The notes under the pieces: model-generated | What the model was told of the DNA's origin: nothing | What the model saw: only the letters and a program-made list of their open reading frames with translations | Database searches by the model: none | Translations under genes and position numbers: made by a program | Source of the DNA: an uncultured Nitrospinaceae bacterium | GTDB taxonomy: Bacteria; Nitrospinota; Nitrospinia; Nitrospinales; VA-1 | Length of the DNA stretch: 64,000 bases | NCBI GenBank assembly: GCA_964584125.1 | Contig: CAZOYP010000001.1 | Coordinates: 54,952-118,951 of the forward strand | Reading direction: 5' to 3' | Shown here: positions 6,109-16,669 of the stretch, in pieces | How the letters are laid out: the number at the start of each line of letters is the position of its first letter | Numbering within the stretch: position 1 is the stretch's first letter

Positions 6109-6999
6109 GTGAAAGATTATTATTCAATATTAGGAGTATCTCGTAATGCTTTAGATGCAGATGTTAAAAAAGCATTTCGAAAAAAAGCTATGGATTATCA
6201 TCCTGATAGAAATAAGGACAACCCAAAAGCCGAAGAAAAATTTAAAGAAGTTAATGAAGCATACGCTGTTTTAAGTGATAAAAACAAACGATCTCAATAT
6301 GATCAGTTTGGAAGTGATGGGTTTCATAAACGTTTTTCAAGAGAAGATATCTTCCGAGACTTTGACTTTGGAGATATGTTTAGCTCTTTTGGATCACAAT
6401 CAGGTTCTGGTGGCACTAGGGGCTTTCCTGACCTAGATAGCTTTATGTCTGGTCATGGTTTTGGAGGGCCACGTACACGCAAAGGACAAGATATAAGGCA
6501 GGATTTTTATATTTCTTTTAATGAGGCTGCTCTAGGAACACAACGTAGTATTATTGTTGAATTAAATGGAAAAAAAACAGAGACAACTTTTAAAGTACCT
6601 GGAGGTTCTAAAGACAGATCTCGGTTACGACTAGTAGGAAAAGGCCAACCTGGAACAAATGGCGGGTCACCCGGAGATCTATATCTCAATATTCGTATTA
6701 ATAAACACCCTCACTTCTCAAGGGAAGGCGACGATATAGTAATTAGTAAAGAAATATGCCCAACTGAAGCCTTGCTTGGTACTACTGTTGAAATTCCCAC
6801 ACTAAAAGATTCGAAACAATTAACTATTCCCCCTTGTACCCAAAGCCACACGAAACTTAGGCTTAAAGGAGTAGGTATACCCTACAATCAAGGGAAAATG
6901 ACAGGAGATCAGTTAGTTCGCATTATTGTCAAATACCCAAAAAAATTAACGAATCAACAACTTGAGCTAGTTCACAAGCTAAAAGACTCTGGCTTGTAA
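6109..6999 (+). CDS. cbpA: DnaJ-class co-chaperone without a zinc finger (CbpA-like)
   Basis: It uses a GTG start. The J-domain reads DYYSILGV...YHPDRNKD and is followed by a G/F-rich linker. The Cys-rich zinc-finger region is absent. Length is 296 aa. Confidence 0.75.
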
Positions 7000-7043
7000 T
7001 ATAAGATATACGCCAGGCATCAAATCTCTACTTAAGTAAGGAG

Positions 7044-7349
7044 TTGTTCACTGTGGCTTCAGTAAACTTTATACCCGACAAAGTAGTTCATCACATAGCT
7101 GATGGTAGTCGGTTAATTGAGGTATGTGATGAAACCGGAGTCTCTTTATCTTTTGGTTGTACTGAAGGGAGTTGTGGTGTTTGTGAGCTTACAGTGTTAG
7201 AGGGGAGGGATAATTTATCAAAAATTACGGACGAGGAGAAAAATTATTTACTCCCTGACGATTTAGAAGGAGGAATGCGCTTGGGATGCCAATTAAAAAT
7301 CCGAAAAGGTGATGTAAGCCTGACTTGGAGAAAAAATAAAAAAAATTAA
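7044..7349 (+). CDS. 2Fe-2S ferredoxin-domain protein
   Basis: The pattern C-x4-C-x2-C (CTEGSCGVC) plus a distal Cys (LGCQL) is present. The start codon is uncertain (TTG at 7044 or a downstream GTG). Confidence 0.7.
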   Translation: MFTVASVNFIPDKVVHHIADGSRLIEVCDETGVSLSFGCTEGSCGVCELTVLEGRDNLSKITDEEKNYLLPDDLEGGMRLGCQLKIRKGDVSLTWRKNKKN

Positions 7350-7409: not shown

Positions 7410-7438
7410 ATTGACTTATCTTTAATCAACAAATAGAA
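7410..7438 (+). promoter_or_regulatory. Sigma70-like promoter of the pyr operon (TTGACT-17 nt-TAGAAT)
   Basis: TTGACT lies at 7410-7415, a 17-nt spacer follows, and TAGAAT lies at 7433-7438. This places the transcription start just upstream of the PyrR-binding hairpin. Confidence 0.45.
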
Positions 7439-7459
7439 TATTAAATGCTACTAATATAA

Positions 7460-7495
7460 CTCTTTAAACCGGTCCTGAGAGGCCGATAAGGGATC
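7460..7495 (+). promoter_or_regulatory. PyrR-binding RNA hairpin (anti-antiterminator) in the pyr leader
   Basis: The sequence CUCUUUAAACCGGUCCUGAGAGGCCGAUAAGGGAUC contains the conserved PyrR recognition core UCC(A/U)GAGAGGC. Flanking UCUUUA can pair with UAAGGG. Confidence 0.65.
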
Positions 7496-7523
7496 AATGA
7501 TATACATGACAAGCAAGATTGCT

Positions 7524-7560
7524 CCTTCGTGGAAACAACTTCCGTAGGGGCTATTTTTTT
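7524..7560 (+). terminator. Attenuator (intrinsic) terminator of the pyr leader
   Basis: The stem CCUUCGUGGAA / UUCCGUAGGGG (loop ACAAC, several G-U pairs, one mismatch) is followed by CUAUUUUUUU. The 5' arm CUCCUU can alternatively pair with AAGGG of the PyrR hairpin. Confidence 0.55.
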
Positions 7561-7579: not shown

Positions 7580-8125
7580 TTGAATAACCTAGCTTTTAGT
7601 AACACAGATATTTCCAGAGCAATAAGCCGTATTACCCACGAAATATTGGAAAAAAATAAAGGTGCTGAAAATTTAGCTCTAATTGGGATCCGCACTCGGG
7701 GTGTAACCCTCGCAAATAGAATTCGAAAAAAAATCAGTGATATTGAGGGTATAGAGATAGATCTCGGGGTTTTAGATATAACTTTATACCGTGACGATTT
7801 AGATGCTGGCAAACGCAATCCTATGATAGAAAAAACAACCATTCCTTTTCCTTTGGAAGATAAACAAGTTGTCCTAATTGATGATGTACTTTTTACAGGT
7901 AGAACGATAAGGGCAGCAATTGATGCCCTTATTGACATTGGCAGACCGGCCAATGTTCAACTTGGTGTGCTAATAGATAGAGGACACAGAGAGCTTCCGA
8001 TTAGAGCAGACTATGTAGGTAAAAATATTCCAACAGCTAAAAACAGTCGAGTTCAAGTATTACTAAAAGAAGATGACGGTAAAGATGAAGTTTTCATATT
8101 AGATGATTTAAAAAAAAATAAATGA
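7580..8125 (+). CDS. pyrR: Bifunctional pyr mRNA-binding attenuation protein / uracil phosphoribosyltransferase PyrR
   Basis: It has [12 protein letters not shown], the PRPP-binding loop [17 protein letters not shown], and DITLYRDDL. The ORF-track GTG at 7529 lies inside the terminator stem, so TTG at 7580 (GGTG 5 nt upstream) fits family length better. Confidence 0.85.
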
Positions 8126-9057
8126 TGTTTACTATTAAAAATATTTTAGGAACCCGGTCCTTAAGCCAAGAAGATATAACTACTATATTAGATGCAACTG
8201 ATTCATTCAAAGAAATTTCTACACGCCCGATTAAAAAGGTGCCGACGTTAAGGGGAAAAACTATAATCAATTTATTTTTTGAACCAAGTACTCGAACTCG
8301 TACTTCGTTTGAAATAGCAGGGAAAAGGCTAAGCGCTGATGTAATAAATATTTCAGGATCCTCAAGCAGTACAGTTAAAGGTGAAAATCTAATAGATACG
8401 GCCTTAAACCTTGAAGCTATGCGCCCAGATATTATGGTTGTACGTCATGGACTTTCTGGGGCTGCTGAAATGATTTCTCGTTTTGTTCATTGCCCAATTA
8501 TAAATGCGGGCGATGGATATCATGAACACCCTACTCAAGCTTTACTAGACTTATATACAATTAGAGAAGCAAAAGGTAACTTAAAAGGATTAGACATAGT
8601 AATCGTTGGTGATATAGCACACAGTAGAGTAGTCAGGTCCAATATTTACGCTATGAAAACGATGGGTATGAACGTGAAACTCATCGGACCACCAACTATG
8701 ATTCCGCTGGGAATAGAAAAAATGGGAGTTGATATCAGTTATTGCTTAAAAGGTGCAATATCAAACGCGGACGTAATCATGATGCTTCGCCTGCAAAAAG
8801 AAAGGCAAAGCCAGTTCCTGTTACCCAGTATTCGCGAATACTCTAATCTTTATTGCCTTACTACAAAACTTTTAGAAGAAGCAAAAGAAGATGTGCTTAT
8901 TTTTCACCCTGGTCCAGTCAATCGTGGAATTGAAATCTCTTTAGATGTAATGGAAAGTGATCGATCACTTATATTAAATCAGGTTACTAACGGAGTAGCA
9001 CTTCGCATGGCACTAATGTACCACATTCTTGGGGGTAATAATGACCGTATTAATTAA
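8122..9057 (+). CDS. pyrB: Aspartate carbamoyltransferase catalytic subunit
   Basis: Motifs [21 protein letters not shown] and HPGPVNRG are present. The start overlaps the pyrR stop. Confidence 0.92.
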
Positions 9058-10336
9058 AAATGGATGGATTATAGACCCAGACAATAATATAGATGGGCCA
9101 AAGGATCTATTGATTGATAAAGGAAAAATTAAAACTTTGGGATCTCCGGGAAAAATAAACATTGATGATGGAGAAAAAATAGCCATTATCGATGCAAAAA
9201 ACTGTGTTGTTTGCCCTGGATTAATAGATATGCATGTCCATTTTAGAGAACCTGGGTTTGAATATAAAGAAACTATAGAATCCGGGTGTAATTCTGCAGC
9301 AGCTGGTGGCTTTACTTCTGTAGCAGTCATGCCAAATACCAAACCTGTAAACGACACAAGATCTGTCACAGAGCACATTCTATCCTTAGCGAAGAAAGAA
9401 GGTATTATTAATTTATATGCCATTGCAGCTATCACAAAAAAACTTCAAGGTGAAAGTTTGTCGGAAATGTCTGATCTGAAGGATGCTGGAGCAATAGCGT
9501 TTTCAGATGATGGGCGTCCGGTTATGAATAATGAGCTTATGCGTAGAGCTTTTGAATACAGCAAAATGTTTAATCTCCCTTTGATTCAGCATAGTGAGGT
9601 TTTAGACCTCACTGAAGGCGGTTGTATGAATGAGGGAATGGTATCAACAGAACTTGGGTTAAAAGGTATGCCTTCAGAAGCTGAGGACATAATGGTATAC
9701 CGAGATATTGCCTTACTTGAAAAAACTGGGGGACGACTTCATGTTGCCCATATAAGTAGTAAAAATTCAGTTGAGCTAGTACGACAAGCAAAAGCCAAAG
9801 GATTATCTGTAACATGCGAAGTTGCACCTCATCATTTCACTTTGACTGATGAAGCCGTACGTGGATATGATACAAACACAAAAATGAGTCCTCCACTTCG
9901 CACAATCATAGATGTTGAAGCTATTAAAGAAGGCCTCAGCGATGGAACAATTGATATCATAGCAACAGACCATGCACCCCACGATATTGTGGATAAACAG
10001 GTTGAGTACCAGAATGCGTGCTTTGGTATAGTTGGATTAGAAACTGCCCTCCCTCTTTCTTTAAAACTAGTAGAAGAAAATGTTTTATCTATTTCTGATG
10101 TCATAAAAAAGCTGACTTCTGTCCCTGCTGAAATATTTAATTTGAATGGTGGGAGCCTTTCGCAAGGAAACGATGCAGATATTCTAATTTTTAACCCAAA
10201 TCATGGATACTCAATAGATATTTCAAAATTTCACTCCAAAAGCAAAAATAGTCCTTTTGACGGATGGAAGGTTAAGGGAAAGGTCATACACACTATAGTA
10301 AGAGGAAAAACTGTGTATTCAGGAACTGAGAATTAG
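9041..10336 (+). CDS. pyrC: Dihydroorotase
   Basis: Motifs DMHVHFREPG, ATDHAPH and VAPHH are present. ATG at 9041 follows GGGGG, so the ORF-track TTG at 9029 is probably an over-extension. Confidence 0.9.
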   Translation: MTVLIKNGWIIDPDNNIDGPKDLLIDKGKIKTLGSPGKINIDDGEKIAIIDAKNCVVCPGLIDMHVHFREPGFEYKETIESGCNSAAAGGFTSVAVMPNTKPVNDTRSVTEHILSLAKKEGIINLYAIAAITKKLQGESLSEMSDLKDAGAIAFSDDGRPVMNNELMRRAFEYSKMFNLPLIQHSEVLDLTEGGCMNEGMVSTELGLKGMPSEAEDIMVYRDIALLEKTGGRLHVAHISSKNSVELVRQAKAKGLSVTCEVAPHHFTLTDEAVRGYDTNTKMSPPLRTIIDVEAIKEGLSDGTIDIIATDHAPHDIVDKQVEYQNACFGIVGLETALPLSLKLVEENVLSISDVIKKLTSVPAEIFNLNGGSLSQGNDADILIFNPNHGYSIDISKFHSKSKNSPFDGWKVKGKVIHTIVRGKTVYSGTEN

Positions 10337-10368: not shown

Positions 10369-11493
10369 ATGAAAGCTGTTTTAGCCTTAGCTGATGGAAG
10401 AGTATTTGAAGGGACAGCCTTTGGTTCAGAAGGTGAGATTAGTGGAGAAGTAGTATTTAACACTAGTATGACGGGTTATCAAGAGGTTCTTACAGATCCA
10501 TCATATTATGGGCAGATGGTAGTTATGACCTATCCACTTATTGGTAACTATGGTGTTAATAACGAAGACTTTGAATCAGACCGACCTCATCTCTCAGCAT
10601 TCATTATAAAAGAATTAAGCTCTATTCCTAGTAGTTGGCGATCCAAAAACACATTGCACGGTTTTCTTAGTAAACATGGCATCATTGGACTACAAGGAAT
10701 TGACACAAGGGCCTTAACTCGTCACATTAGAAATATCGGAGCACAACAAGCAATTATTTCAACTAAATCATACGATCATCGATCATTAGTTTCCAAAGCA
10801 AAATGCTTGCCTTCTTTGAAAGGACAAGATTTAGTAAAAGAAGTAACTTGCAAAACACCCTATGAATGGACTGAGGGGGAGTGGGTATCGACAAATGGGG
10901 AAACCTTCTTCAAAAAAACGTTAAAACATAAATATTTTGTTATTGCTTACGATTTTGGAATAAAAAGAAATATTTTAAGAAAGCTTGCTCAAGAAAAATG
11001 CCTAGTGAAGGTAGTGCCTGCATCAATGCCAGCTAAAGATGTTCTAGAAATGAAACCAGATGGTGTTTTTTTATCAAACGGCCCCGGAGATCCAGCAGCA
11101 GTAAGATATGCCTTCGAAAATGTGAAATACTTAATCGGGAAAGTCCCAATATTTGGAATATGTTTAGGACATCAAATACTTAGCCTTGCATTGGGAGCCA
11201 ACAGTTATAAATTAAAATTTGGTCATCATGGTGGAAATCAACCCATTTTAAATTTAAAAGAAAAAAAAGTGGAAATAACTTCTCAAAATCATGGGTTTGC
11301 TATAGATGCAGACTCTCTAGAAAATGATTGCACAATTACTTCCACTAACCTAAATGACAATACAGTTGAAGGAATTCGACATAAGACTCTCCCAATTATA
11401 TCTGTTCAGTACCATCCGGAAGCATCTCCAGGCCCGCAAGATTCATCATATCTGTTTAAAGAGTTTACCAATCTGTTGGATTTGTATAAATGA
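10369..11493 (+). CDS. carA: Carbamoyl-phosphate synthase small (glutaminase) subunit
   Basis: It has FNTSMTGYQE, the catalytic GICLGHQ, and the HPE tail. Confidence 0.92.
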   Translation: MKAVLALADGRVFEGTAFGSEGEISGEVVFNTSMTGYQEVLTDPSYYGQMVVMTYPLIGNYGVNNEDFESDRPHLSAFIIKELSSIPSSWRSKNTLHGFLSKHGIIGLQGIDTRALTRHIRNIGAQQAIISTKSYDHRSLVSKAKCLPSLKGQDLVKEVTCKTPYEWTEGEWVSTNGETFFKKTLKHKYFVIAYDFGIKRNILRKLAQEKCLVKVVPASMPAKDVLEMKPDGVFLSNGPGDPAAVRYAFENVKYLIGKVPIFGICLGHQILSLALGANSYKLKFGHHGGNQPILNLKEKKVEITSQNHGFAIDADSLENDCTITSTNLNDNTVEGIRHKTLPIISVQYHPEASPGPQDSSYLFKEFTNLLDLYK

Positions 11494-12362
11494 TAAAAGA
11501 TAGCCTTGATTATTTAATCAAAATTGCCATAGACCACCCGTATTCAAATGATCTATTGCTAGCTCGCAAAGAATATCAAAAGTATACCGGTGAAATTTTT
11601 GAAGATGATAAATCTTATGAAGATAGAATGGCCTTATTTCTCGAGTGGTATATTTTTGAACGTATTGAACCTTCTAAAGAAAAAACGGTTCTTGAAGCGA
11701 TAATTAGCAATAGCAAAGAACTACCATCCAACATATTAGTAAATATTAAACAATTTATTAATAATATCCATGGTCTTTTTATCGTTAAAAAAATAAAGGC
11801 TGATTCGGTACGAGTAATAAATTTATTTAACGACAAAAAATATGACGTTTATGAACCATCCAGCAAACTATACTTTAGTAAAGATAATGTTTTTGAGGGA
11901 AGGCTTCTTCCCCACGAAGAATCTTACTTTTTTACAGGTAATTTTTGTTTTCATCCAAATGGGACTAAAAAGTATATTAAAAGTGAGATAAAAAAAATTA
12001 TCTCTGCTCAGAAATCAAATGAAAAAGAATTGGCTTCAAAAAAAACAACGATGAATAAGGAGTTTAAAGTTTTAAATAATACAACCGGCTCTATAAAAAA
12101 ATTACAAGAAAGGCTTATAACATTAAACAATGAAAAAGAAATAACCAAAATTCAAAAAAAAATAGCCGGGCTTGAACCCATAAAGTCAATACAAGAAGAA
12201 AAGTGCCGCCTGCTTGAAAAAGATATTGTGATATTCACTCACACTAAAATACATAGACAAGCCAAATTAGATAAAACTTTACTAATGCAAAAACTTGCTT
12301 ATATGCGATTACTTTTTGAACGTTCTCGTAATATAGAACTTAAGAATATTTATAAAAATTAA
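11490..12362 (+). CDS. Hypothetical protein embedded between carA and carB (globular N-terminal part + Lys-rich coiled-coil C-terminus)
   Basis: An ATGA overlap joins it to the carA stop, and a TAATG overlap joins it to the carB start. At 290 aa it has no motif I recognise. Confidence 0.7.
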
Positions 12363-15300
12363 TGCCTAAAAGGTCTGACATAAAAAGAATTTTACTAATT
12401 GGGGCAGGTCCTATTGTTATAGGACAAGCTTGTGAATTTGATTATTCTGGAACTCAAGCATGCAAAGCTTTAAAGGAAGAAGGCTACGAGGTTATATTGG
12501 TAAATAGCAACCCAGCTACCATTATGACCGATCCAGAATTTGCAGATAAAACCTATGTAGAACCAGTAACCCCAGAAATTGTTGAGATGATAATAAAAAA
12601 GGATCGTCCTGACGCCCTGTTACCAACAATGGGAGGACAGACTGCACTGAATACTGCCTTAGCTCTTGCTGATAAAGGCATTCTTTCATTTTATAATGTT
12701 AAACTAATTGGAGCCGATATTAATTCCATTCGAAAAGCTGAAAACCGTCAGCTTTTTAAAGAGGCAATGAAAAACATAGAGTTAGAAGTTCCTCCCAGTG
12801 GTCATGCCCAAACTCTTGATCAAGCGCGTAAAATTATCAATAATACTGGTTTCCCCGCTATCATCCGTCCGTATTTTACTCTAGGAGGTAGCGGTGGAAG
12901 CATAGCATATGACCACGATGAATTCGATTCTCTAGTAAAAACGGCACTTCACATAAGCCCCACTAGTGAAGTTCTTATAGAAAAGTCTCTCATAGGGTGG
13001 AAAGAATATGAACTCGAGGTGATGCGCGATCATAAAGATAATGTTGTCATAGTGTGTTCGATTGAAAATCTTGACCCAATGGGAATACATACTGGTGATA
13101 GTATTACAGTTGCTCCAGTACAAACATTAACTGACAAAGAATATCAACTAATGCGGAACGCAGCAATCGACATAATTCGAGAGATTGGTGTCGAAACTGG
13201 TGGCTCTAATATTCAATTTGCTCTCGATCCTATAAATGGAGATATGATAGTAATTGAGATGAATCCACGGGTATCAAGAAGTTCAGCCTTGGCTTCAAAA
13301 GCAACCGGATTTCCAATAGCCAAAATTGCAGCGAAACTTGCCGTTGGATATACTTTAAATGAAATTAAAAATGATATTACTCGTGTAACCCCTGTCTCAT
13401 TTGAACCAACAATAGATTATTGCGTTGTAAAAATTCCACGATTTAGTTTTGAAAAATTCTTTACAACCGATCCTATTCTTTCAACACAAATGAAATCGGT
13501 AGGAGAAGTAATGGCAATAGGACGTACCTTTAAAGAATCCCTAAATAAAGCACTACGTTCATTAGAAATTGATGTTTTTGGATTAAGTAAAAATATCAAG
13601 GGTGTATCTAAAAATTCTTCATTAAATCAAAAAAATATTCGAAATAAATTAAGTAATCTATTAAAAAAACCTATTTGGGATCGGTTGTGGTACGTAGCAG
13701 AAGCTATGAGAAACGGGTTTTCTGTTAAAGAAATACATAAAAGTACTTTTATTGACCCATGGTTCCTTCAAAATATTCAAGATCTTCTCAATATTGAAAG
13801 TGAACTTATTTCAGTGAGGCATATTAATGATATTCCTGAAAGTCTCCTTAACCAAGCTAAAGAAAACGGTTACTCAGATATTTTTATTGCGAAAATTCTA
13901 AAATGTAACCCAATGGATGTTACTTTAAAAAGAAATTTAGCCAAAATTAAACCTGTCTATAAAAGAGTGGATACCTGTGGAGCTGAGTTTGAAGCTCACA
14001 CACCTTATCTATATTCGACTTATGAGAAAGAGTGTGAGGCTGAACCCACAAACAAAAAGAAAATAATGATACTTGGAGGAGGTCCTAACCGTATCGGTCA
14101 AGGAATTGAATTTGACTATTGCTGTGTTCATGCATCTTTTGCACTGAAAGAAGCAGGTTACGAAACAATTATGGTTAACTGCAATCCAGAAACCGTAAGC
14201 ACTGATTATGATACTTCTGACCGACTCTATTTTGAACCACTAACTTTTGAGGATGTTTCAAATATTGTAGAAGTCGAAAAACCAGATGGTGTGATTGTTC
14301 AGTTTGGAGGACAAACTCCCTTAAAACTTGCTGTGCCACTGATGAATGCTGGAGTTCCAATCATTGGAACGAGTCCAGAAAATATTGACCGCGCAGAAAA
14401 CAGAAAACTTTTCTCCCAAGTTATGACTAAGCTTAATTTAAAACAACCTGCTAATGGTACTGCAACTACATGTAAAGAGGCTCAGCTCATTGCTGATGAA
14501 ATTGGTTATCCTGTTGTTGTTCGTCCTTCCTACGTTTTGGGTGGGCGCGCAATGGAAATTGTATATGACCAAGAGAGCCTTGAATATTATATGGAACATG
14601 CTGTTGAAGCGTCACCTGAACATCCGGTCTTAATAGATGATTTTCTTAAAAATGCAATAGAAATTGATGTAGATGCTATTTCTGACGGGAAATCAGTTAC
14701 TATTGGCGGTGTTATGGAACACATTGAGGAAGCAGGTATTCATTCTGGGGACAGCGCCTGCTCTCTACCAACCTTTTCTATAAAATCTAAAGTAATAGAA
14801 TCTATAAAAGATCAAACACGTAAGCTTGCTTTAGAGCTAAATGTTATAGGATTGATAAATATCCAATTTGCAGTTAAAGATGAAGAGATATTTATTTTGG
14901 AGGTCAACCCTAGGGCATCTAGGACGATACCATTTGTTAGTAAAACTACAGGAATTCCACTTGCTAAAATGGCTTCTCTTGTCATGGTTGGTAAAACATT
15001 AAGTCAGCTTGGATTAACTCAGGAAGTAAGTGTGTCCCATATTGCTATCAAGGAATCTGTTTTCCCATTCAACAAATTCGATAACGTGGATACGCTTTTA
15101 GGGCCAGAAATGAAGTCTACAGGTGAAGTAATGGGAATTGATAATTCTTTTGGAATGGCATTTGCTAAAGCACAACTAGCAACAGGCATTAAACTTTTAG
15201 ACAAAGGATCTGTGTTTATTAGTGTTAAGGATTCAGATAAACTTAAATCTCTTGAGATAGCTAGAGACTTTTCTAAATATGGCTATAAGATTTTTGCAAC

Positions 15301-15610
15301 TAAAGGAACAGCTCAATTTCTAACCCAAAACAACTTAAATGTTTTTACTATTAACAAGGTTAAGGAAGGATCACCACATATCGTTGAAAAAATAGAAAAT
15401 GGAGATATTCAATTTGTTATCAATACAACATTTGGAGAACAATCAATAAAGGATTCATTTTCTTTGAGGCGGGCTTCTATCAATACAAATACGCCATATT
15501 ATACTACCATTGCAGGGTCGCTTGCTCTTCTTAAAGCGTTGGAAGCCTTGAGGGAAAATAACATGGCCGTCACACCTCTACAGGATTGGAATACAACTCA
15601 GTTAGTATGA
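12362..15610 (+). CDS. carB: Carbamoyl-phosphate synthase large subunit
   Basis: At 1082 aa it has two ATP-grasp halves ([15 protein letters not shown] / [15 protein letters not shown]) and a C-terminal MGS-like domain. Confidence 0.95.
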
Positions 15611-16669
15611 TAAGGACGAAAGCCCCATAAAAGACCCCCAAGTTATATCTTTATGATGTAACTGATTATCTATTTTTTCTTTTTTTGATTCTTTAATTTT
15701 AGGTACAACTAAGTCACCTGGGATAAAATCTATACCGGTAACAATTTGGGCTTTCGAAAATCGGCCTTGAACCTCACGAATCTTTAGTATGCCTTTCCGA
15801 TTGTAATTATCACCTAAATCCACTTTGTCAACCGGATCATTGAATGAAGACTCTACAGAAAATACTGTAAATAAATCCTGCACTTTAACTCCATTTATTT
15901 TTCCTAAATTAATAATAGCGCTATTATTTTTATAATCAACTGCTATTAAATCCCCCTCAAGTGGAAGACTATTCAATATTTTATAAATAAAAGTTGTAAC
16001 TTGGCTATTTAGCAGCCATAAAGCTATACCGCTTGAATGAGATTTAAATTTATTCGATTTATAGTCACTATTCGGCAAGTTTAAATCAAAGGTCTTTCTT
16101 CCAGTATTTGAATTTTGGGTAAATATCTTTTTTGCTAGCAATCTACCTGTATGTAAGTTCACTATCTCTACATTAGCCTGAATATAAGCACTTTCTCTAT
16201 GAAATTTAGCTTGTTTAGTTGTGTGACCTTCCTGAAGGGGGTTAGTATCAGATTCAAATAATAAAATAGCCCCACTAATTTTATATTGGCTCAATGGCTT
16301 ACTTTTGGATGGAGTAAGATTTATGAGTTTTTGCCGAGTATTATTTATATTTTCTTCTTCTCCATCTACTTCATTTGAAACCTGTATTTTTTTATCATCA
16401 GCATCATCTAGTGATTTTAATTGCACTATTTGATATTTACCCAAAACAGCAAGGCTGTTTTTCAACATATCGGTAAAAATCATGCCTGGTTTAAAAGGCT
16501 TCTCCCATTTAACAGGTTCGGAAAATGTTTCAAGGGACAATTTTTTTATATATCTTGCATCTGCATTATTCTCTGAGATTAAAATTAAAGTAATTGCAAT
16601 AAATGGAATTACATAAGCCTTAATAAATATATTTTTAAATAAAATATTCATAACTTTACCTATCGACAC
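15602..16669 (-). CDS. Exported protein, weakly CsgG/LpoB-like N-terminal module with a beta-rich C-terminal domain
   Basis: A hydrophobic N-terminal signal or anchor is present. The block [11 protein letters not shown]...[21 protein letters not shown] resembles the CsgG-type lipoprotein pattern. It overlaps the carB end by 9 nt, convergently. Confidence 0.3.

Follow-up and report, generated by a model that had tools for sequence, protein, structure and literature searches.

What does a third gene do between the two genes that encode the subunits of carbamoyl-phosphate synthase (CPSase)? Few enzymes in biochemistry are studied as thoroughly as CPSase and those that begin pyrimidine synthesis, and their operons in bacteria are not known to hold anything beyond catalytic subunits, PyrI and PyrR. 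The question is raised by a 64,000-nucleotide (nt) stretch of DNA from an uncultured Nitrospinaceae bacterium (GenBank assembly GCA_964584125.1, contig CAZOYP010000001.1, positions 54,952 to 118,951 of the forward strand), referred to below as the window, in which carA and carB are separated by an open reading frame (ORF) of 290 codons that we call X. An earlier reading of the letters alone, the original prediction, had described this frame as an unfamiliar gene coupled to both of its neighbors. We find that X is a genuine gene of the Pfam family DUF7986, that it is locked between carA and carB by overlaps across a whole phylum, the marine nitrite-oxidizing Nitrospinota, and that its relatives elsewhere are tied to pyrB, pyrC and carA. 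The locus represents a variant carAB/pyr operon architecture and X itself a long-form variant of a catalogued domain of unknown function (DUF); the function that we infer for it, tentatively, is that of an accessory partner of the early pyrimidine enzymes.

A gene locked between carA and carB

X starts with an ATG, encodes 290 amino acids (aa) and overlaps both neighboring genes:

10369..11493, plus strand: carA, the small (glutaminase) subunit of CPSase (Pfam CPSase_sm_chain and GATase)
11490..12362, plus strand: X, a DUF7986 (PF25948) protein, long form (from the ORF list, homology and the structure model)
12362..15610, plus strand: carB, the large subunit of CPSase (Pfam CPSase_L domains)
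11490..11493, plus strand: ATGA junction of carA and X, formed by the ATG of X (11490-11492) and the TGA that ends carA (11491-11493)
12360..12364, plus strand: TAATG junction of X and carB, formed by the TAA that ends X (12360-12362) and the ATG of carB (12362-12364), with one base in common

The frame and both of its overlaps are found exactly where the original prediction had placed them, and the peptide motifs quoted there are present in X. At the local GC content of 28.5%, a run of 290 sense codons has a probability of ~3e-12, a stop being expected every ~11 codons; the remaining five frames of the same stretch contain 12-45 stops, and when the window was shuffled 20 times, no stop-free run exceeded 180 codons. 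This confirms that the X frame is not a chance product and that X is a genuine gene. A terminator-like hairpin followed by a T-run lies inside X on the minus strand (12167-12180), where no minus-strand gene ends, and is probably a chance match in AT-rich sequence.

With neighbors typed by Pfam, the operon in the window reads pyrR-pyrB-pyrC-carA-X-carB, and between carA and carB we saw nothing of note that resembles a promoter or a terminator. The two overlaps recur widely: the carA/X junction has a -4 (ATGA) or -1 overlap in nearly all of ~50 Nitrospinota loci, and the X/carB junction a -1 (TAATG-type) overlap in most of 52 long-form loci. In Bdellovibrionales the corresponding distances are -7 to 0 nt and 3-26 nt, and where X follows pyrC the two genes overlap by 4 nt (locus L084 of our survey) or are separated by 3-4 nt (L103, L113, L121). 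X has a Shine-Dalgarno (SD) sequence of its own, embedded in the 3' end of carA, while in most loci carA and carB have none; the median anti-SD pairing energies for X, carB and carA are -5.6, 0 and 0 kcal/mol, respectively (Nitrospinota loci L001-L058). These observations support the view, already put forward in the original prediction, that X is co-transcribed within pyrR-pyrB-pyrC-carA-X-carB and that its frame is joined to those of carA and carB by the overlaps. Because carB generally lacks an SD sequence, ribosomes that end translation of X probably re-initiate on carB.

The original prediction had also considered that X might be a selfish insertion that has become fixed. In its broadest form this explanation holds that X is a selfish or foreign insertion, or a non-functional ORF or spacer that merely couples the translation of carA and carB. 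The total GC content of X (28.5%, against 36-38% in the neighboring genes) would fit such an origin, as would the unrelated genes that other lineages carry between carA and carB (PA4757 in Pseudomonas, PMC9866376 and PMC5767178; a 444-bp orf in Xanthomonas, PMC4619228). The GC content at third codon positions (GC3), however, is 0.23 in X and 0.23-0.28 in its neighbors, so that the low total GC follows from the amino-acid composition, and X has no match in PHROGs (phage) or PADLOC (defense). X lies at the same site in all surveyed Nitrospinota loci, and in Myxococcus stipitatus a member of the family closes its operon, with nothing 3' of it to couple. The ratio of nonsynonymous to synonymous substitution rates (dN/dS; Nei-Gojobori, eleven pairs) is 0.09-0.33 for X, compared with 0.03-0.2 for carA/carB, which indicates purifying selection; one near-identical pair gave 0.76 from very few substitutions. 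Motifs are kept down to 21% identity, and the protein has a confident predicted fold. Taken together, these results effectively refute a selfish insertion or an empty spacer.

Within X, the N-terminal domain evolves under a dN/dS of 0.08-0.23, and the coiled coil, at 0.13-0.6, is the fastest-evolving part. Essentially no frame disruption was seen among the orthologues, the two cases being an artefact of a run of Ns and one in-frame stop in a metagenome-assembled genome (MAG). The latter, in the Nitrospina sp. LS_NOB MAG (L035:6805-6807, LFLA01000007.1), falls at codon 269 of X, where the close relative L034 has Arg, and the LAYMNLKWERSRQIEISDIYKN motif 3' of the stop is perfectly conserved. 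Either the nonsense mutation is recent or the sequence contains an error; taken at face value, the stop would leave carB uncoupled from X by 68 nt.

A family spread over three phyla

The remark in the original prediction that the protein resembled nothing known gave way on comparison with databases, as X belongs to the Pfam family DUF7986 (PF25948), with hundreds of relatives in three phyla. The PF25948.1 label is carried by a database protein 100% identical to X, by 120/120 listed homologues, and by every listed homologue in each of three homologue searches; it is a precomputed Pfam annotation that comes with no score, and the Pfam-A copy used for our own scans held no PF25948 model. With that copy and NCBIfam, X and diverse family members gave coiled-coil noise and no match, and X did not match the CPSase domains (CPSase_sm_chain/GATase, CPSase_L/ATP-grasp/MGS) that are strongly recognized in both of its neighbors. 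Searching 1.84 billion cluster representatives exhaustively with phmmer, we obtained 565 relatives at E<1e-3, the E-values to long and short forms running from 1e-90 to 1e-12. Among PDB sequences a single-sequence search found no match, and a profile search gave chance matches to P450 3A4 at E ~0.1. Literature searches found nothing on DUF7986/PF25948 and no characterized member. On the profile label, full-length homology and predicted fold together, X is a member of DUF7986.

The family comes in two lengths. About 30 representatives are ~290 aa long and can be aligned with X from end to end at 33-57% identity, and most of the others listed have 205-225 aa. The short forms align to X residues 1 to ~175 and again to its last ~25 residues, and what separates the long from the short forms is a Lys/Glu-rich insertion of ~82 residues (X residues ~181-262). 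Since the short forms match the last ~25 residues too, the C-terminal motif belongs to the ancestral core and the coiled coil is an insertion. This corrects the description of X as a globular part with a coiled-coil tail, the coiled coil standing between the globular part and a conserved C-terminal motif of the last ~28 residues. Some Nitrospinota lineages carry a 206-aa short form (L052, L053), and the insertion therefore arose within Nitrospinota.

Named sources in Nitrospinota are Nitrospinaceae, Ca. Nitromaritima and Nitrospina, and those in Myxococcota are Aggregicoccus, Myxococcus, Corallococcus, Stigmatella and Archangium. Further members come from Bdellovibrionota and unclassified MAGs, and the divergent subgroups are mostly metagenomic proteins. 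Several MAGs labelled Neomarinimicrobiota, Nitrospirota or Nitrospirae (L013, which is DPYO01000131.1; L029, L038, L039) have the typical Nitrospinota-type pyrR-pyrB-pyrC-carA-X-carB order and a carA 65-68% identical to that of the window, which suggests mis-binning or outdated taxonomy.

Gene order across loci

To see how firmly X is tied to its neighbors we surveyed 147 loci, typing the neighboring genes by tblastn and Pfam and restricting upstream and downstream counts to loci with at least 900 nt of flank. A first scan with a long-form alignment gave 59 species-level genome loci (56 of Nitrospinota type and 3 of Bdellovibrionales), and another 80 loci came from metagenomes, scanned with a short-form alignment. 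Both scans used narrower alignments, broad ones being too diverse, and are thus biased towards members with FL[DE]W[YF][ILV]F[DE] and FCFHP-type motifs. Five arrangements were distinguished:

Class (a): pyrR-pyrB-pyrC-carA-X-carB; all long forms and some short forms
Class (b): pyrB-carA-X-carB-greA-recG; Bdellovibrionota-like loci (L088, L095, L102, L109, L145)
Class (c): (lepA-lepB-)pyrB-pyrC-carA-X, then a convergent gene, with carB elsewhere; Myxococcaceae, including the complete Myxococcus stipitatus genome
Class (d): pyrR-pyrB-pyrC-X-(radical SAM-unknown-)recG, with no carA or carB; unclassified MAGs
Class (e): no pyr or car gene within 5 kb of X; for example lptFG-u134-X-greA-recG, and two myxobacterial arrangements

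In 59/59 genome loci carA lies directly 5' and carB directly 3' of X wherever the contig reaches. Among long forms, carA precedes X in 71/71 loci and carB follows it in 68/68, which answers with yes the question, raised in the original prediction, whether X always sits between the two genes in this lineage. The 49 short-form loci are more varied: 29 have carA upstream and 11 have pyrC (40/49 together), and 9 have neither. The proposed link to pyrimidines thus stands, on the adjacency to carA or pyrC in three phyla, whereas a role specific to CPSase is too narrow, as X follows pyrC in loci without carAB, carB lies elsewhere in Myxococcus, and about one fifth of the short-form loci have no pyr or car gene nearby. 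The alternative link to arginine that had been offered has gained nothing, no observation tying X to arginine. The family is associated with the pyrimidine operon as a whole and not just with CPSase; the association is strong, though exceptions exist.

Some of the loci without pyr or car neighbors keep the rest of the neighborhood. In lptFG-unknown (134 aa)-X loci lacking carA and carB (L096, L097, L100, L140), greA-recG follows directly after X, and the myxobacterial MAG locus L063 still has Yip1-PilZ-MamF 3' of X with the pyr genes absent. Because X keeps these neighbors where pyr and car genes are missing, part of the pattern may be inherited gene order. X might then be a positional hitchhiker, with a housekeeping role unrelated to pyrimidines, in an ancestral gene order of a Nitrospinota-Bdellovibrionota-Myxococcota supergroup that has been kept by inertia and was locked in Nitrospinota by the dependence of carB on the X stop codon. 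The pairs lptFG-u134-X-greA-recG and pyrB-carA-X-carB-greA-recG, and the Yip1-PilZ-MamF remnant of the myxobacterial pyrB-pyrC-carA-X locus, are what one would expect in that case, and with carB lacking its own SD sequence, loss of X would be costly. Deep synteny of this kind is seen in Pseudomonas, where the order dnaJ ... carA ... carB ... greA (PMC4619228, PMC9866376) is echoed here by dnaJ-fer2-pyr. Against inertia, carA or pyrC adjoins X in 111/120 loci with enough flank, although X is only 25-35% identical among the lineages, and the order of unrelated genes rarely survives such distances; X is also tightly coupled, by an overlap or a few nt, to the preceding pyr gene, including pyrC where carA is absent. 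We consider a hitchhiking X possible, if on the doubtful side.

The greA-recG pair after carB or X echoes the carAB-greA linkage of Gammaproteobacteria. In L103, L112, L113 and L121 two further genes lie between X and recG, one for a radical-SAM protein (~308 aa) and one for a conserved protein of 237 aa that matches nothing in Pfam, and a relative of the radical-SAM protein is also found 5' of lptFG in the X-greA-recG loci.

Predicted structure and conserved residues

X is a soluble, cytoplasmic protein, for which AlphaFold2, run on a 53-sequence alignment, gave a model with a mean predicted local distance difference test score (pLDDT) of 96.3 and a predicted template modelling score (pTM) of 0.89. 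The model of a short form reached a pLDDT of 95.6 and, compared by element order, has the same elements as the long form: five helices, a barrel of 5-6 strands and a helical hairpin. In X the parts are as follows, in window coordinates:

11490..11759, plus strand: X residues 1-90, acidic five-helix domain (AlphaFold2 helices 2-13, 18-33, 43-56, 67-73 and 80-89)
11760..11957, plus strand: X residues 91-156, six-stranded beta-barrel resembling an oligonucleotide/oligosaccharide-binding (OB) fold, with HGLF, FEGRLLP and FCFHP (AlphaFold2 strands within 93-155, Foldseek)
11958..12323, plus strand: X residues 157-278, antiparallel two-helix coiled-coil hairpin, helices 157-211 and 215-278 (AlphaFold2, pLDDT ~98)
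12030..12275, plus strand: X residues ~181-262, Lys/Glu-rich insertion of the long form (family alignments)
12276..12359, plus strand: X residues 263-290, family-wide C-terminal motif L.YM.LK.ER.R.I...DIY (alignments; R278 81% and Y288 96% conserved)

The hairpin has ~55 residues per arm in the long form and ~17+17 residues in short forms, and is followed in the X model by a short terminal helix; in the predicted fold its end packs back with the conserved C-terminal motif. Family-wide, the median net charge is -8 for the helical domain and close to neutral (+1) for the barrel, and the hairpin and C-terminus are basic; the isoelectric point (pI) of the whole protein has a median of 7.7 and a range of 4.8-9.8.

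In searches of the PDB with the long and the short model, and of BFVD, Foldseek found no match at E<1e-3 and no solved structure with the whole architecture. Its matches to the barrel were OB folds throughout (RMI2, CusF, Ten1, S1, CSD), all weak, with E 0.02-0.1 and query TM-scores (TMq) of ~0.2-0.27. One may therefore ask whether X is a nucleic-acid-binding factor, with the OB-like barrel and the basic hairpin binding RNA or DNA, either as a regulator of the pyr operon that complements PyrR, or replaces it where pyrR does not adjoin the operon, or as a transcription or repair accessory acting with GreA or RecG. The best fold matches are indeed OB folds of the S1, CSD, RPA, Stn1-Ten1 and RMI2 type, the helix after the barrel and the hairpin tip are rich in Lys and Arg, greA and recG are recurrent 3' neighbors, and Bdellovibrionota-like and Myxococcota loci have no pyrR next to pyrB. 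The fold matches, however, are confined to the barrel, and X has no Pfam, NCBIfam or PDB sequence match to nucleic-acid-binding families; in particular, neither X nor diverse family members matched the S1, CSD or tRNA_anti-codon Pfam models. A generic nucleic-acid binder is further argued against by the charge of -8 of the helical domain and the median pI of 7.7, as well as by the near-neutral barrel, and since greA-recG also stands after carB where X lies upstream, its adjacency is explained by synteny. On balance we think such a factor unlikely.

Fifteen positions are 81-98% conserved over 53 sequences that are 21-57% identical to X: A25, G34, E44, R46, F50, W53, H94, F97, L112, R138, F148, H155, P156, R278 and Y288, with A25, G34, F50, W53, F97, R138, H155, P156 and Y288 at 89-98%. 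The alignment suggests a hydrophobic core together with a conserved polar set (E44, R46, H94, R138, H155, R278 and Y288) that may form a defined binding site. X might on this basis be a small-molecule sensor or an enzyme, with the near-invariant Glu/Arg/His/Arg/His/Arg/Tyr set binding a ligand that carries a phosphate or carboxyl group (a nucleotide, carbamoyl phosphate or carbamoyl aspartate, for instance), so that X would sense or process a pathway intermediate. Such a role would suit an operon whose enzymes produce and consume labile carbamoyl phosphate, and also the 81-98% conservation of the polar set. Nevertheless, X has no similarity to any enzyme or ligand-binding family and no fold match, and the spatial clustering of the conserved residues is an assumption; we hold a sensor or enzyme to be very unlikely.

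A tentative role for X

We tentatively favor, with a probability of about 0.4, a non-catalytic role for X as an accessory to the enzymes of early pyrimidine synthesis. It would act as a regulatory, assembly or scaffolding partner of CPSase and/or of the pair formed by aspartate carbamoyltransferase (ATCase) and dihydroorotase (DHOase). Translational coupling would allow X to be produced in step with its partner enzymes, which it might contact through the acidic helical domain and the putative conserved pocket; the coiled coil of Nitrospinaceae, with ~55 residues per arm, would be a lineage-specific extension, serving as a spacer or oligomerization arm, of a hairpin that is short elsewhere. Four things lead us to this reading. 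As a general rule, adjacency conserved across phyla marks interacting products, and such genes are reportedly enriched for products that physically interact (Dandekar et al. 1998). X is moreover tightly coupled to whichever pyr gene precedes it, its helical domain is acidic and of a protein-interaction-like character, and the protein has no uniformly basic surface.

Several observations weigh against an accessory partner. X lacks an adjacent pyr or car gene in 9/49 short-form loci, and the retention of greA-recG or Yip1-PilZ-MamF where carA/carB or the pyr block is missing looks like positional inertia and not like selection for co-expression. The adjacency of carB and greA is likewise conserved, and we know of no functional link between these two. 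The barrel resembles OB folds, which are often nucleic-acid binders, and X evolves much faster than its presumed partners, at 35-60% identity where carA has 65-79%. That the conserved residues form a single pocket is assumed.

A more specific version of the accessory-partner reading can be imagined, in which DUF7986 is a new non-catalytic subunit that couples CPSase to ATCase/DHOase in a non-covalent, CAD-like arrangement channelling labile carbamoyl phosphate, or that provides nucleotide feedback where PyrI is lacking, with the coiled coil as spacer or oligomerization arm. We regard this as a speculation that is quite unlikely as it stands. If X is an accessory subunit, it would add a new layer of regulation or channelling to a textbook pathway; if it is a positional hitchhiker, it still shows cleanly how translational coupling can freeze the order of genes. 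Myxococcota and Bdellovibrionota include predatory bacteria, and the gene is present in cultured genera with genetic tools (Myxococcus, Corallococcus, Stigmatella), so that the question is directly testable.

The pyr leader and the surroundings of the operon

The genes upstream of carA, and the leader that precedes them, are as follows:

7411..7439, plus strand: promoter-like site TTGACT-17-TAGAAT ahead of the pyr leader (10/12 consensus matches, from pattern matching alone)
7457..7560, plus strand: putative PyrR-binding leader/attenuator (RF00515, GGUCCUGAGAGGCC loop motif, then a hairpin and U-run)
7580..8125, plus strand: pyrR, a regulator of the phosphoribosyltransferase (PRTase) type (Pfam PyrR-like PRTase; orthologues of 182 aa)
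8122..9057, plus strand: pyrB, aspartate carbamoyltransferase (Pfam OTCace_N, OTCace)
9029..10336, plus strand: pyrC, dihydroorotase (Pfam Amidohydro_1, DHOase; orthologues of 431 aa)

The RNA family RF00515 matches 7457-7560 over the full model length with 42.7 bits and E=0.003, below its gathering score of 54. That the operon is attenuated by PyrR, as the original prediction had assumed, is thus plausible from the promoter-like site, the RF00515 match and the hairpin with its U-run, but a match below the gathering score does not prove it. The ORF list starts pyrR at GTG 7529, which lies inside the leader element, so that TTG 7580 is the more likely start and gives 181-182 aa, as in the orthologues. 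The true start of pyrC is probably a few codons 3' of the TTG in the ORF list.

Upstream of the pyr operon (window 6109-7349) are a CbpA/DnaJ-like gene (296 aa) and a ferredoxin-like gene of the 2Fe-2S type (~100 aa), an arrangement shared by many Nitrospinota (for example L001, L002 and L004). This dnaJ-like/ferredoxin-like pair before pyr recalls the dnaK-dnaJ-dapB-carA neighborhood of Pseudomonas. Downstream, a convergent 355-aa gene on the minus strand (15602-16669) overlaps the 3' end of carB by 9 nt; the one match it gives, to FlgT_C, is weak (25.7 bits, under the cut-off), and the gene is kept at the same position in most Nitrospinota loci (24-54% identity).

Comparison with known systems

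The barrel of X is similar in topology to OB-fold domains (S1, cold-shock, RPA/Stn1-Ten1, RMI2, CusF), with Foldseek probabilities of up to 1.0 over ~60-100 aligned residues. The E-values of 0.02-0.1 and identities of 10-20% set it apart, as do the helical domain and hairpin of X, which have no counterpart in these proteins, and a surface that is not basic overall. Gre/DksA factors share with the long form of X a two-helix antiparallel coiled coil that projects from a globular domain, and greA is a recurrent neighbor in Bdellovibrionota-like loci. In X, by contrast, the hairpin comes after the globular part in the chain, with ~55 residues per arm, against ~17 in most members; X has no GreA_GreB_N, Gre/DksA or zinc-finger match in Pfam, and the bona fide greA is a separate neighboring gene. 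A Gre-like role as a family property was rejected, since most members lack the long hairpin.

PyrI offers an analogy, and no more than that, as a small non-catalytic protein encoded directly after a pyrimidine catalytic gene and, in the case of PyrI, made in stoichiometric amounts. The two proteins have no similarity in sequence or fold, and X has neither a Zn-binding Cys cluster nor the PyrI Pfam domains: PyrI gave no Pfam match to X even at E<=10, and a single Cys of X is partly conserved (C153, 68%).

Extra genes between carA and carB are known from other bacteria. P. aeruginosa has the order carA-orf-carB-greA, the orf being PA4757, annotated as a LysE/YeaS-type amino-acid efflux permease (PMC9866376, PMC5767178), and Xanthomonas citri has a 444-bp orf (147 aa) reported to be dissimilar to that of Pseudomonas (PMC4619228). 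Like X, these are additional ORFs co-transcribed between the CPSase genes, and they indicate that the junction tolerates an inserted gene. PA4757, a membrane protein, and the Xanthomonas orf are lineage-restricted, whereas DUF7986 is found across phyla; the separation of the two from X is made by annotation and size only. PA4757, of similar length, was considered as a homologue of X and rejected on its annotation as a YeaS/LysE-type efflux permease.

The short forms of DUF7986 in Myxococcota and Bdellovibrionota (~205-225 aa) share with X the helical domain, the barrel and the predicted fold, along with the motifs FL(E/D)W(Y/F)xF(D/E)R, FE(G/A)RL, FCFHP and ER.R....IY, and their genes usually stand right after carA or pyrC. 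X differs from them in its ~82-residue coiled-coil insertion and in its setting, which is always between carA and carB and nearly always joined to both by stop/start overlaps.

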